A stretch of DNA of 46,305 bases from a bacterium (GCA_046331705.1 JAXLQJ010000058.1:1-46305), one strand, 5' to 3'; counted from the first letter of the stretch, positions 30,601 through 36,396 are shown. The notes: a model not told the origin generated them from the sequence alone. Translations and numbers: made by a program.

Positions 30601-33600
30601 GATGTTCGCCGAGGTGCTGGAACGCGGCTGGCAGGTGTACCGCGGCGATCGCGGCAGCGCCCCCGAGCGTGCGGCGGAACCCGTGGTGATCACCGGCGCG
30701 GCCCTCGGCTTGCCAGGCGTCGAGCGGGTCTTCGACGACGCCAACGTCGGACGAATTCTCCACGGCCAGGGCTTCATCGATCTGATCCCGGCGCGCTTCC
30801 GGCGCGCGATCCTCGACAAGCACATCACGCGCCTCGCCAAGAAGGCGGACGGTGAGGCGAGCTTCGAGGCCATCTCCAGCCCGAGCGACGTGATCAAGCT
30901 CGCCGGCCGGGCCGGGCGTTTCGACCTCGCCGACGAGTTCGGCGTGGCGCTCGAGCGCATGCCCGCGCTGGATACCGTCACGCGGCTCGCGATCGGCGCC
31001 GGCCTCGACGCTCTGCGCGACGCGGGAATCCCGCTGGTCATGCACTACCGGACCACCACCAAAGGCAGCTTGCTCCCCGACCGCTGGATGCTGCCCGAGT
31101 CGCTGCGCGACGACACCGGCATCGTCTTCGGCGCCGCGTTTCCCGGTTACGACGCCTTCGCGGCCGACCTCACCCGCTTCCACGTCGATCGCGCCCGCCG
31201 CGAGCAGCTCGCGCTCCTCGAGCGGCTGCGCGCGCGCACCAGCGAGACCGTGCCGAGCGCGCTGCGCGTGCTGGCCGATCTCGACGATCAGATCCACGAG
31301 CTCGAGGCCGCCCTCGAACGCGAGCCCTACTCCTTCGACCGGCGCTTCCTGTTCCGCATCCTGGCCATGGGCCATTCGCAGTTCGCCGAGCTGATCGGGG
31401 CCCGCGGACCCAACACCCACGTCAACGCGGCCTGCGCCAGCACCACCCAGGCGGTGGCGCTCGCCGAGGACTGGATCCGCGCCGGGCGCGCCAAACGCGT
31501 GATCGTGATCGCTGGCGACGACGTCACCAGCGACAACCTCCTCGAATGGATCGGCGCCGGATTCCTGGCCTCCGGCGCCGCCGCCACCGACGACGTCGTG
31601 GAGGACGCGGCGATCCCGTTCGACCGGCGCCGCCACGGGATGATCCTCGGCATGGGCGCCGCGGCCTTCGTGGTCGAGAGCGCCGCCGCCGCTCGCGAGC
31701 GCGGGCTGCGCCCGATCTGCGAGGTGCTGAGCGCCGTGACGGCCAACAGCGCCTTCCACGGGACGCGCCTCGACGTGCGTCACATCTCCAGCGTGATGGA
31801 ATCGCTGGTCGCGCAGGCGGAGTCACGCTGGGGAATCCGGCGCGAGGCGATCGCCGCGGAGACCGTGTTCGTCTCCCACGAGACCTACACGCCGGCGCGT
31901 GGCGGCAGCGCCGCCGCCGAGGTCCACGCGCTGCGCACGGTGTTCGGAGCCGCCGCCGATCGCATCGTGGTGGCCAACACCAAGGGCTTCACCGGACACG
32001 CGATGGGTGTCGGCATCGAGGACGTGGTGGCGATGAAGGCGCTCGAGACCGGGCTGGTGCCGCCGGTCGCGAACTTCAAGGAGGCCGATCCCGAGCTCGG
32101 CCACCTCAATCTCTCGAAGGGCGGCGTGTATCCGGTGCGCTATGCGCTGCGGCTGGGCGCCGGGTTCGGCTCCCAGATCAGCATGACGCTCTGCCGCTGG
32201 GTGCCGAGTGCGGACGGTTCGCGTCCCAGCCCGGACCAGCTCGGCTACGCATCGCGCATCTCCGATCGCGGCGCGTGGTCGGCGTGGATCGATCGGGTCT
32301 CGCGCCAGCCTGGCGCCGAGCTGGAGGTGGTCAAGCGGACGCTTCGGGTCGTCGATCAAGGACCGGCGGCGCGCGTTGGAGAGCCGCGGCGCACGGCGAC
32401 GCCGCCTGTCGAGCCGAAGACCGAACGCGCAGCCGATCCGCTCACCCCGCCGCCGGCGCCGGTGGCGCCCGCGCCGGACGAGCGCGCCCCTTCGCTTCCG
32501 GCCGCAGCGACGCCCGCCGCCTCGGTGGCGACGGGCGATCCGATCGCCGAGCAGGTGCTCGCGCTCTTCGCCGAGAAGACCGGCTATCCGCGCGACATGC
32601 TCGCGCCCGATCTCGATCTGGAGGCCGATCTCGGCATCGACACCGTCAAGCAAGCCGAGATGTTCGCCACCATCCGGGAAGCCTTCGCGATCCCCCGCGA
32701 CGACAAGCTCAAGCTGCGCGACTTCCCCACCCTCGCCCACGTCGTCGGCTTCGTGCGGGATCGCCGGCCCGATCTCGTCCCTGGTCCGTCGGTCGCTGCG
32801 GCGGCGACGCCAGCCGCTCCTCCTCGGGCGTCCGCCGTCGCAGCGACCTCCGCCGCCGCCTCGGTGGCGACGAGCGATCCAATCGCCGAGCAGGTGCTCG
32901 CGCTCTTCGCCGAGAAGACCGGCTACCCGCGCGACATGCTCGAGCCCGACCTCGATCTGGAGGCCGACCTCGGCATCGACACCGTCAAGCAAGCCGAGAT
33001 GTTCGCCACCATCCGGGAAGCCTTCGCGATCCCCCGCGACGACAAGCTCAAGCTGCGCGACTTCCCCACCCTCGCCCACGTCGTCGGCTTCGTGCGGGAT
33101 CGCCGACCCGATCTCGTCCCTGGTCCGTCGGTCGCTGCGGCGGCGACGCCGGCCGCTCCTCGGGCGTCCGCCGTCGCAGCGACCCTCCCGCCGCCGCCTC
33201 GGTGGCGACGGGCGATCCGATCGCCGAGCAGGTGCTCGCGCTCTTCGCCGAGAAGACCGGCTACCCGCGCGACATGCTCGAGCCCGATCTCGATCTGGAG
33301 GCCGACCTCGGCATCGACACCGTCAAGCAAGCCGAGATGTTCGCCACCATCCGGGAAGCCTTCGCGATCCCCCGCGACGACAAGCTCAAGCTGCGCGACT
33401 TCCCCACCCTCGCCCACGTCGTCGGCTTCGTGCGGGATCGCCGACCCGATCTCGTCCCTGGTCCGTCGGTCGCTGCGGCGGCGACGCCGGCCGCTCCTCC
33501 TCGGGCGTCCGCCGTCGCAGCGGCCCCTCCCGCCGCCGCTGCCTCGGTGGCGACGGGCGATCCGATCGCCGAGCAGGTGCTCGCGCTCTTCGCCGAGAAG

Positions 33601-36396
33601 ACCGGCTATCCGCGCGACATGCTCGAGCCCGATCTCGATCTGGAGGCCGACCTCGGCATCGACACCGTCAAGCAAGCCGAGATGTTCGCCACCATCCGGG
33701 AAGCCTTCGCGATCCCCCGCGACGACAAGCTCAAGCTGCGCGACTTCCCCACCCTCGCCCACGTCGTCGGCTTCGTGCGGGATCGCCGACCCGATCTCGT
33801 CCCTGGTCCGTCGGTCGCTGCGGCGGCGACGCCGGCCGCTCCTCCTCGGGCGTCCGCCGTCGCAGCGACCCTGGATCCGACAACGCCCCGCGGCAGCCTC
33901 GACGCGGCGAACGCGATCCCACGCCGCGTCCCCATCGTGCTTCTGCGTCCACCGCTCGCGCTCTGCAAACCCACCGGCGTGAGCCTGGCTGCCGGCACGC
34001 GCGCGATCGTGATGCCCGACTCGGGCGGGGTCGCCAAGGCGCTGCTGAAGGTGCTCAAGAAGCGCAAGGTCGAGGTCCACGTCCTCGCCGAGAACGTCGA
34101 TCGGAACACGCTCGACGCCGAACTCGATCGCATCCTCGCGACCGGCCCCGTGCACGGCCTCTACTGGCTGCCCGGCCTCGATCCCGAGGGCGAGCTGGCA
34201 GCGATGGATCTGGCGGCCTGGCGTCAGGCGCTCGAGCGCCGCGTCAAGCTGCTCTACGCGGCGACGCGCAAGCTCTACGAATCGCTCGCCACTGCCGGCT
34301 CGTTCCTGGTCGCCGCCACGCGACTCGGCGGTTGCCACGGCTACGACGCAGCCGGAGCCACCAACCCGCTCGGCGGCGCCGTGGTCGGCTTCACCAAGAC
34401 CGTGAAGCGCGAGCGCCCCGAGGCATTGGTGAAGGCGGTCGACTTCGGCGCAGAGCGCAAGGCCAGCGAGATCGCGACGAGCCTGGTCGACGAGACGATG
34501 CTCGATCCCGGCGTGGTGGAAGTGGGCTCGCGCGGCAGCGACCGCATCGCCATCGGCATCGAGGAGCGCGGCGCCGTCGACGGCCACCCGGGACTGACGC
34601 TGGATCGCGACTCGGTCTTCGTCGTGACCGGCGCCGCCGGCGGCATCACGTCGGCGATCACCGCCGACCTCGCCGCCGCCTCGGGAGGCACGTTCCATCT
34701 CCTCGACCTTGTGCAAGCCCCCGATCGCGAGAACCCGGATCTCGCGCGCTTCACCACGGACAAGGAAGGTCTGAAGCGCGATCTCTTCGAGCGCATCAAG
34801 GCGCGTGGCGAGCGTGCCACGCCCGCCGCTGTCGAGAAGGAGCTGGCCACCATCGAGCGCAGCCTCGCCGCACTCGCCGCCATCCAGGCAGTCGAGGCGG
34901 CAGGCGGCACCGCGCGCTACCACCGTGTCGACCTCTGCGATGCCGCCCAGGTGGCGGAGGTCATCGGTGCCGTGCGCGCCGCGAGCGGCAGGATCGACGT
35001 GCTGCTCCACGCCGGCGGGCTGGAGGTGAGCCGCTTCCTGCCCGACAAGTCCCCAGCGGAGTTCGATCGGATCTTCGACGTGAAGAGCGACGGCTGGTTC
35101 AACCTGATGCGCGCGATCGGCGAGCTGCCGCTGGCCGCCACGGTGGCGTTCAGCTCGGTCGCGGGCCGCTTCGGCAACGGCGGCCAAGCCGACTACAGCG
35201 CCGCCAACGATCTGCTCTGCAAGCTCACGTCGAACCTGCGCAGGCTGCGCCCAGACACCCGCGGCATCGTCATCGACTGGACCGCGTGGGCCGGCATCGG
35301 CATGGCGAGCCGCGGGTCGATTCCCAAGATGATGGCGGCCGCCGGCATCGACATGCTGCCAGCCGAGGCCGGCATCCCGATCGTCCGCCGCGAGCTGGTC
35401 TGCGGCGCCACGCGCGGCGAGATCGTCATCGGAGAGCGGCTCGGCGTGCTGGTGAAGGAATGGGACGCCACCGGCGGCCTCGATCCGGCAGCCGTCCCCG
35501 TCGTCGCCGCGGGACCGATGCTCGGCAACGTCACCGGCATGGGGCTTCACGACGGCCTCGAAGTCGAGGTGACGCTGGACCCGAAGGCGCAGCCCTTCCT
35601 GCACGACCACCAGATCGACGGCACTCCCGTGCTGCCGGGCGTGATGGGCATCGAGGGCTTCGTCGAGGCGGCGAGGGCCCTCTTCCCCGATCGCCACCTG
35701 GCTCGCGTCGAAGACGTGCGCTTCGAGGCGCCCTGCAAGTTCTACCGTCACGAGCCACGCACGCTGCGCTTCCTGGCTCGCTTCCACGGCGAAGGCGACG
35801 CCGTCGGCGCCGAGGCGCGGCTGGTCGCGGCGCGGAGCGTCGTGGGCCAGAGCGAGCCGACGCTCACGACGCATTTCCGCGCGCGCGTCCGGCTCTCGTC
35901 CGCGCCGCCGGCCCCGCTGCACGCGCAGCCGCCACCCGATGCGCAGGGCGCGGTGGTGACGGCCGCCGACGTGTACCGCGTCTACTTCCACGGCCCCGCG
36001 TATCGCGTTCTCGACGGCGCCTGGCGCGCCGGCGAGGGTGCCGTGGGCCGGCTCGCGGCCGATCTGCCACCGCACCACGCGCCCGCGGATCGACCGCTGG
36101 CGGCGGCGCCCCGGCTCGTCGAGCTGTGCTTCCAGACCGCTGGCATCTGGCAGCTGGGCACGGCCGGCCACATGGCGTTGCCGCGCCAGCTCGGCTCGCT
36201 CGTCGTGCATCCCGCGGCCAGCGCGCCGAGCGGCGAGGTGCGCGCGGCGATCGTCGCGCGCGACGGCGGCTTCGACGCACGCGTGGTCGACGCCACCGGT
36301 CGAGTGCTGATCGAGCTTCTCGACTACCGGACCATCGAGCTGCCGGACCCGCTCGAGCCCGAGCCCCTGCGGCCACTGCAGGAAGCGATGACCTGA
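27647..36396 (+). CDS. PfaA-like iterative type I PKS/FAS: KS-AT-KS2-ACPx4-KR-DH, ~2916 aa after correcting a 1-nt frameshift near 33185
   Basis: KS1 DAACAS/EGHGT/NIGH; AT GHSLG and HAFH; KS2 NAACAS/HETYT/TGHAMG; four ACPs [17 protein letters not shown] and [18 protein letters not shown]. Split across ORFs 27647..33982 and 31546..36396. Confidence 0.9.
32525..33870 (+). repeat. Four near-identical ~340-bp tandem repeats, each encoding an ACP plus Ala/Pro linker
   Basis: Units start at 32525, 32864, 33202 and 33547 (periods 339, 338, 345), with only a few nucleotide differences. Confidence 0.95.

Follow-up and report, generated by a model that had tools for sequence, protein, structure and literature searches.

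Threonine at the phosphopantetheine acceptor position of the tandem carrier domains in a PfaA-like synthase operon with its own phosphopantetheinyl transferase

The DNA described here, termed the window, is the entire contig C58 of a bacterial genome assembly (GCA_046331705.1, JAXLQJ010000058.1:1-46305). It comprises 46,305 nucleotides with a G+C content of 71%, and the assembly amounts to 8.17 Mb in 118 contigs. The window harbours an operon, transcribed throughout from the + strand, which encodes an acyl-CoA-dehydrogenase-like (ACAD-like) protein, a multidomain synthase, a fused acetyl-CoA carboxylase and an Sfp-type 4'-phosphopantetheinyl transferase (PPTase). The synthase is composed of a ketosynthase (KS1), an acyltransferase (AT), a second ketosynthase (KS2), four tandem acyl carrier protein (ACP) domains, a ketoreductase (KR) and a dehydratase (DH). 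All four ACPs carry a threonine at the position of the serine that accepts 4'-phosphopantetheine (Ppant). An original prediction, made from the sequence of the window, had read this arrangement as Thr-linked phosphopantetheinylation by the PPTase of the same operon. The features of the operon are as follows:

25595..27604, + strand: ACAD-like gene, the first of the operon (Pfam Acyl-CoA_dh N, M and C; 669 aa from a TTG, true start uncertain)
27647-36396, + strand: synthase as a whole, with KS, AT, KS2, four ACPs, KR and a PS-DH dehydratase (Pfam, motifs)
27647..33185, + strand: 5' part of the synthase in the frame of 27647, with KS1, AT, KS2, ACP1 and ACP2 (translation, Pfam)
28286, + strand: region of the KS1 Cys codon (motif position)
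29741, + strand: GHSLGE motif of the AT (motif position)
from about 30683, + strand: KS2, with NAACAST at 31424 (motif position)
32549..32752, + strand: ACP1 (PF00550), Thr codon ACC at 32642-32644
32888..33091, + strand: ACP2 (PF00550), Thr codon ACC at 32981-32983
33183..33185, + strand: frameshift site at three consecutive C, located in the linker between ACP2 and ACP3 (translations)
33178..36396, + strand: 3' part of the synthase in the frame of 31546, with ACP3, ACP4, KR and PS-DH (translation, Pfam), stop codon at 36394-36396
33226..33429, + strand: ACP3 (PF00550), Thr codon ACC at 33319-33321
33571..33774, + strand: ACP4 (PF00550), Thr codon ACC at 33664-33666
34618-35292, + strand: KR (Pfam, motifs)
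35515-36348, + strand: PS-DH dehydratase (Pfam, motifs)
36456..42044, + strand: single-chain acetyl-CoA-carboxylase-like gene, with biotin carboxylase, biotin carboxyl carrier protein, central and carboxyltransferase domains (Pfam)
42041..42835, + strand: Sfp-type 4'-phosphopantetheinyl transferase of 264 aa (Pfam ACPS), in ATGA overlap with the carboxylase stop

In the 5' part of the synthase, Pfam recognizes ketoacyl-synt and PP-binding in two stretches each, together with Acyl_transf_1; the 3' part yields another two stretches of PP-binding, followed by KR, PKS_DH_N and PS-DH. A motif scan located the catalytic motifs of KS1, AT, KS2, KR and DH, and KS2 keeps its active-site Cys (NAACAST) as well as His motifs. 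An NCBIfam search returned no specific family name for any of the operon proteins. The start codon of the carboxylase gene (ATG 36456) was placed by counting back along the translation, as the Pfam scan had begun at 36513. The overlap of the PPTase start at 42041 with the carboxylase stop bears out the translational coupling that had been proposed for the PPTase. Across the four operon proteins, Pfam detects no PP-binding domain beyond the four ACPs, in agreement with the earlier statement that the operon contains no further Ppant carrier; the biotinyl carrier domain of the carboxylase is a carrier of a different kind.

The original prediction had also held that the active sites of the synthase look intact. 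This is correct for the KS1, AT, KS2, KR and DH motifs, but not literally true for the assembled copy, since the synthase gene is frameshifted, a feature that had been overlooked. ACP1 and ACP2 are read in the frame of 27647, ACP3 and ACP4 in the frame of 31546, and the synthase is split by a shift of 1 nt. Contigs from four public metagenome runs, which belong to four studies, were compared over positions 31500-35000, and only run X1 covers the frameshift site, the depth there being 0 in runs X2, X6 and X11. X1 provides a single contig of 95 nt (depth 14.2) with one additional C behind 33182, which results in one continuous frame; this contig differs at two further positions and thus stems from a related strain. 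In X2, a contig of 2014 nt joins 32518 to 33541, which corresponds to a collapsed ACP array, and by arithmetic the join is in phase. Short-read contigs break or collapse within the 345-bp repeat. Given the extra C in X1 and the in-phase join in X2, the frameshift is probably either a homopolymer or assembly error or a strain-level lesion.

A scan of all frames that allowed any residue at the acceptor site retrieved four ACP motif matches, each with the codon ACC for Thr, and their positions (32642, 32981, 33319 and 33664) are exactly those reported originally. Every copy matches PF00550, a single copy scoring 30.4 bits at a cut-off of 20.8 (E 4.6e-7); the hallmark Ser of this family at the start of helix II is absent, and Thr stands there in all four copies. 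In a phmmer comparison with solved structures, the Thr aligns with the DS-motif Ser of the PigH ACPs (5y08) and of the fatty acid synthase (FAS)/type II ACPs 2ehs, 2lol and 8jfn. Sequence searches of the PDB with the ACP and the PPTase retrieved only generic ACPs and Sfp/AASDHPPT. Each 86-residue unit contains one Ser, a linker residue (AASVAT) that precedes the Thr by 37 positions, and the stretch that holds it has no majority residue in an alignment of 38 ACP sequences. In the same alignment, the residues D43, T44, V45, K46, Q47, A48 and E49 are invariant. The four copies constitute a tandem array at 32514-33872 with a period of 345 bp, 4.0 copies and 97% matches (Tandem Repeats Finder). Since they are near-identical, they count as one observation, and the caution voiced from the outset that they are not independent is justified.

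Independent evidence comes from the homologues, which were collected in three ways. An unbiased search was performed with one ACP as query, using phmmer without a word index against 1.84 billion cluster representatives; it yielded 5967 hits at E<=1e-3, the best 150 of which were analysed. When all ACP domains of these best 150 of 5967 proteins were aligned to the query, 125 proteins turned out to be Thr-only and 22 Ser-only, and 3 contained both residues. Their 588 ACP domains comprise 443 with T, 130 with S, one each with A, C and G, 2 with D and 10 with a gap at the acceptor position; the A, C, G and D cases are single, visibly degenerate copies inside arrays. A word-indexed search found 4987 proteins at E<=1e-3, and all of the 120 proteins listed among them are Thr-only (572 T and 1 A by regular expression, 573 T and 1 gap by alignment). 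This second sample is biased towards Thr, because the shared words can include the ACP motif itself. Finally, species-representative genomes were scanned with two patterns, at least 599 stretches were matched, 593 were confirmed to encode a relative, and 80 loci were kept. As one of the two patterns (EADLG[VI]DTV) contains DTV, this sample is partly Thr-biased as well.

The 80 loci belong mostly to Acidobacteriota, and further to Chloroflexota, Actinomycetota (including Amycolatopsis and Ilumatobacter), Verrucomicrobiia, KSB1, Gemmatimonadota, Leptospiraceae, Myxococcota, Burkholderiales, Lysobacterales and Bacteroidetes. Korobacteraceae, Bryobacteraceae and metagenome-assembled genomes (MAGs) of Chloroflexota are among the relatives. 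At the acceptor position, tblastn on these loci gave 283 T and 1 gap, and a motif scan open to any residue gave Thr in 282 of 282 motifs from 79 of the 80 loci, with 1-7 ACP motifs per locus, a range also found in polyunsaturated fatty acid (PUFA) synthases. The Thr codons of the 282 motifs are ACC (130), ACG (115), ACT (23) and ACA (14). The use of all four codons points to selection on the amino acid, and Ser, which is one base change away, is absent from the 282 motifs. Together, the homologue counts and the codon usage show that Thr is conserved by selection at the amino-acid level in a large clade that spans many phyla, and in the sequences compared it is the norm of the family in hundreds of bacterial species. 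The four copies in the window and the 282 of 282 motifs in relatives rule out that the Thr arose by chance or through sequencing noise.

Homologues with Ser had been named as the finding that would speak for a mere strain-specific change. The comparison has now been made and does not refute the idea of a Thr acceptor, since 125 of the best 150 proteins and all 282 locus motifs are of the Thr type. A loss-of-function Thr, spread through the array of a single decaying gene by duplication or gene conversion, could be suspected from the 97% identity of the four copies and from the frameshift in the assembly. However, Thr is the norm in hundreds of species, which use all four Thr codons, the X1 contig contains the frame-restoring C, and the collapsed X2 contig joins the frames in phase. 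Strain-specific decay as the source of the Thr is refuted by the homologue and codon data, and we regard it as practically untenable.

A few homologues of the Thr type contain irregular units or domains. In each of the proteins P0159, P0218, P0237 and P0145, one ACP-like unit within the Thr array or at its end is degenerate; KD, G or A takes the acceptor position, and such units are probably dead copies retained as spacers. The proteins P0201, P0214 and P0234, which also belong to the Thr clade, are about 4000 aa long and possess an extra pair of KS-like domains ahead of the usual layout.

The 22 Ser-only proteins among the best 150 are mostly canonical PfaA types with GIDSIKRVEI and without a second KS. 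Another Ser type among the homologues combines a KS-KS layout with GIDSIKKAQLFGE, and one of its members is labelled Pirellulales. Ser-type sister enzymes include P0221, which bears a Heimdallarchaeota label, and the Pirellulales-type proteins P0248 and P0251. To relate the two acceptor types, a quick maximum-likelihood tree of KS1 was calculated from 36 rows, i.e., the full-length proteins of the best-150 set with a complete KS plus the window. On this unrooted tree without bootstraps, the S/T label needs 2 changes, compared to a mean of 8.1 for shuffled labels, and none of 500 shuffles was as low. The second of these changes falls on P0221 (KS-AT-KS-ACP5, GIDSVK, Ser), which branches within the Thr clade next to the Thr-type protein P0237, with a support of 99 in the SH-like approximate likelihood ratio test (SH-aLRT), and the fragment P0210 reads S, T, T across one tandem array. 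In the non-degenerate copies of the best 150 proteins, the acceptor site is either Thr or Ser. An interchange of Thr and Ser, with no other residue in working copies, is the pattern that an O-linked acceptor should show; a pure scaffold would not be expected to produce it.

The PPTase at the end of the operon scores 65.4 bits with Pfam ACPS (PF01648; cut-off 25), while its best NCBIfam match, HetI, reaches 41 bits versus a cut-off of 370. It aligns weakly with Sfp (E 5e-3), yet the alignment extends over the SHS, GxDxE and WxxKES motifs. The residues G114, D116, E118, W157, S158, E161 and K165 are invariant in 38 PPTases and match GIDIE and WSMKES of Sfp. A PPTase homologue is found by tblastn in 75 of the 80 loci, downstream on the same strand in 68 and on the opposite strand in 7. 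Among the 5 loci without such a homologue, 4 stop at a contig end within or just after the carboxylase or the synthase, and L072 truly lacks it within 10 kb. The further operon genes travel along: an ACAD-like homologue is located upstream of the synthase in 64 of the 80 loci (tblastn), and in each of the other 16, less than about 5 kb of sequence precedes the KR-DH match. A full-length fused carboxylase (at least 1500 aa aligned) is present in 44 of the 80 loci, 43 of which also contain the PPTase, in the same order. The co-occurrence and the invariant residues show that a dedicated Sfp-type PPTase, catalytically intact as judged by its motifs, accompanies the synthase.

The putative enzyme-carrier pair was also modelled as a complex of the PPTase, one ACP, CoA and Mg, using alignments of 38 rows each for the PPTase and the ACP. 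The complex obtained an ipSAE of 0.85 (0.86, 0.85 and 0.84 in the individual runs), compared with 0.00 for the best of three controls. Contact agreement between the runs is 94% or more, and the pLDDT (predicted local distance difference test) of the partner is no lower than 86. Among solved complexes, 58 of 80 pass the threshold applied, as do 2 of 110 mismatched pairs; these counts are only a rough guide for this model because it was built with its own alignments and ligands. In the predicted interface, residues 43-45 of the ACP (D-T-V) would lie against E118, 154, W157 and E161 of the PPTase. The known pair of Sfp and a peptidyl carrier protein (1qr0, 4mrt) is similar in its SHS, GxDxE and WxxKES motifs, and the modelled carrier helix II docks on the same catalytic residues; it differs in that the acceptor here would be Thr and in the weak sequence similarity of the PPTase to Sfp. 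Since complexes of a PPTase with a carrier have already been solved (Sfp 4mrt), the good score may reflect mere likeness, and the model says nothing on whether a transfer to Thr occurs.

The nature of the PPTase bears on the question of which group the Thr carries. Its hydroxyl might be decorated otherwise, for instance with a phosphate, with an acyl group in direct O-ester linkage or with some other group derived from CoA; in favour of this, Thr is without precedent as a Ppant acceptor in the searchable literature. However, the enzyme conserved alongside the synthase is an ordinary PPTase of the Sfp type, its Mg- and CoA-binding residues are intact, and Pfam reveals no other candidate modifying enzyme in the operon. 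Moreover, the KS, KR and DH domains of type I FAS and polyketide synthases act on thioesters held on a long arm, as is established for these enzymes. We therefore judge a different modification of the Thr to be very unlikely.

The genome contains three PPTase loci and further carrier systems. On contig C9, at about 170000-183800 (L098), a second tandem-ACP synthase of 2815 aa is encoded, which is composed of enoyl reductase (ER; NMO), KS, AT, four ACPs and KR, and all four ACPs are of the Ser type with GIDSIKRVEI. A 689-aa open frame downstream ends in a PPTase domain, which shares 33% identity over 157 residues with the PPTase of the window. Ser and Thr arrays thus occur in one genome, each beside its own PPTase, an arrangement that fits matched specificities and does not show them. 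Ser-type carriers elsewhere in the genome include an AcpP-like gene on contig C3. A third synthase, of 2796 aa, is encoded on contig C23 (L099, 5705-14095, - strand) and comprises KS, AT, one Ser-type ACP (GIDSIKKARLLGE), an AAT-like domain and KR; the motif of this ACP is similar to that of P0191, which is labelled Pirellulales.

A further alternative is that the Thr ACP-like domains are never modified and serve as scaffolds or docking modules, while the acyl chain is held on CoA or on a free-standing Ser-ACP served by the clustered PPTase. In favour of this, the genome encodes other Ser-type carriers, including the AcpP-like one, and in a few degenerate array members of the homologues the site is occupied by A, G, C or KD. 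In addition, the ACP(S36T) variant of Escherichia coli serves in PMC3340395 as a control without function that "cannot be post-translationally modified by 4'-PP"; the same variant is employed in PMC13343975. E. coli AcpP S36T carries the identical substitution at the identical DS-motif position, but it is engineered and unmodified, whereas the Thr of the window occurs naturally, is conserved and has an Sfp-type PPTase beside it. The enzyme concerned in E. coli is AcpS, which is not of the Sfp type. Other observations argue against unmodified scaffolds: the whole ACP signature D43-E49 is invariant in 38 sequences, and the copy number of 1-7 motifs per locus is that of PUFA synthases. The site is restricted to Thr or Ser in non-degenerate copies, whereas a scaffold would tolerate Ala or Gly too, and 75 of 80 loci encode a homologue of the PPTase, the operon containing no Ppant carrier besides the ACPs. 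On balance, we consider domains that are never modified unlikely.

The operon corresponds to a described but uncharacterised family. A Type R secondary lipid cluster consists of one pfaA homologue with the domains KS, malonyl acyltransferase (MAT), chain length factor (CLF), 3-6 ACPs and KR, and a PPTase gene lies downstream of it (Shulse & Allen 2011, PLoS One 6:e20146, PMC3098273). In Koribacter, an acetyl-CoA carboxylase gene is inserted between the pfaA homologue and the PPTase gene; members are listed from Acidobacteria, Chloroflexi and others, those named being Koribacter, Solibacter, Roseiflexus and Elusimicrobium, and the product is given as unknown (PMC3098273). The words "threonine" and "serine" do not occur in the main text of this article. 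Judged by domain and gene order against this description, the operon of the window fits an uncharacterised Type R secondary lipid synthase: its synthase has the order KS-AT-KS2-ACP4-KR(-DH), and carboxylase and PPTase genes follow as in Koribacter. It differs from that description in that the domain termed "CLF" retains its active-site Cys, a PS-DH follows the KR and a conserved ACAD-like gene is located upstream. Since KS2 keeps the Cys, the label "CLF" is loose for this domain.

The relationship to PfaA is more distant. The synthase resembles PfaA-type PUFA synthases in its tandem ACPs between the AT and the KR-DH, in the frame DLGID-x-[IV]K and in its PfaA-like KS, AT and KR, and the PfaA model TIGR02813 is the best NCBIfam match for both synthase pieces, with 686.9 bits (5') and 303.2 bits (3') below the cut-off of 1010.1 bits. 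In contrast, the ACPs of PfaA contain Ser (LGIDSIKRVEI), and no second KS precedes them, whereas the synthase of the window has Thr and a second KS. PfaA works with the partners PfaB, PfaC and PfaD; this set is absent from the operon, where the neighbours are the ACAD-like gene, the carboxylase and the PPTase.

Taken together, we propose that the dedicated PPTase places Ppant on the Thr of the ACPs and that the synthase then runs as an iterative synthase of the PUFA type, and we assign a probability of roughly 0.6 to this reading, which is based on comparative sequence evidence. According to this proposal, the locus would represent a Type R PfaA-like operon for iterative lipid or polyketide synthesis. 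The PPTase would transfer 4'-phosphopantetheine from CoA to the Thr hydroxyl and thereby form O-phosphopantetheinyl-threonine. The four holo-ACPs would shuttle malonyl units and the lengthening acyl chain, both as thioesters, between KS1/KS2, KR and DH, in the manner of PUFA synthases, with the carboxylase providing malonyl-CoA and the ACAD-like enzyme probably performing the enoyl redox step. Why Thr might be used is a matter of speculation: the residue may insulate the carriers from other PPTases or hydrolases of the cell, or may form a more stable phosphodiester. The Thr-linked phosphopantetheinylation of the original prediction has withstood the comparative tests, that is, the homologue survey, the co-conservation of the PPTase and the restriction of the site to Ser or Thr; the transfer itself is what we infer.

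Several points weigh against this proposal. The synthase gene is frameshifted in the present assembly. Two of the samples, the word-indexed one and the part of the genome scan that relied on the pattern with DTV, were biased towards Thr, and the phmmer search was free of such bias. The catalytic motifs of the PPTase are ordinary (GCDLE versus GIDIE or GIDVE), and nothing in them explains the acceptance of Thr; a comparison of 70 cluster PPTases with Sfp and with the second PPTase of the genome revealed no determinant of Thr-linked transfer. The E. coli S36T variant is not modified. Thr-linked phosphopantetheine was not found in the searchable full-text literature, with subscription journals and supplementary files outside the search, and the same search returned neither the GIDTVK/GVDTVK motif nor a study of Type R clusters after 2011. 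A 2026 survey of PfaA-like clusters still refers to "the conserved Ser residue required" (PMC13291983).

A broader proposal holds that O-(4'-phosphopantetheinyl)-threonine is real and widespread, that a dedicated clade of Sfp-type PPTases modifies Type R tandem ACPs and that each such pair is insulated from the Ser systems of the same cell, e.g., the one on C9. We see the odds of this as evenly balanced.

The Ser acceptor is treated as invariant in the biochemistry of fatty acids, polyketides and non-ribosomal peptides, and annotation rules and engineering rely on this invariance. At the locus, carrier domains with a Thr at the acceptor position lie within the Type R synthase family, which has been catalogued, yet is uncharacterised. 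The Thr-type family counts thousands of database representatives, from soil and sludge bacteria of many phyla. Should the cofactor sit on the Thr, this would constitute the first non-Ser phosphopantetheine linkage, the specificity of the PPTase could be exploited for orthogonal labelling or pathway insulation, and work would be opened on a common synthase, the product of which has been unknown since 2011. If the Thr is unmodified, a widespread megasynthase would work without holo-ACPs, which is equally unexpected.

Some minor observations concern the neighbouring genes and the spread of the family. The single-chain carboxylase of about 1860 aa unites all four domains on one chain inside the operon, and this layout resembles the eukaryote-type fused acetyl-CoA carboxylase. 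The ACAD-like protein is unusually long, with about 550-680 aa aligned compared to about 380 aa in the best-matching NCBIfam ACAD models. The synthase is devoid of an ER domain, and enoyl redox chemistry on substrates bound to the carriers may be contributed by the ACAD-like enzyme encoded upstream. Finally, the proteins P0221, P0149 and P0274-P0277 are labelled Candidatus Heimdallarchaeota in NCBI MAG records, P0221 being of the Ser type and P0149 of the Thr type; provided that these bins are correct, the occurrence of a PfaA-like synthase of bacterial type in Asgard archaeal bins would be noteworthy.

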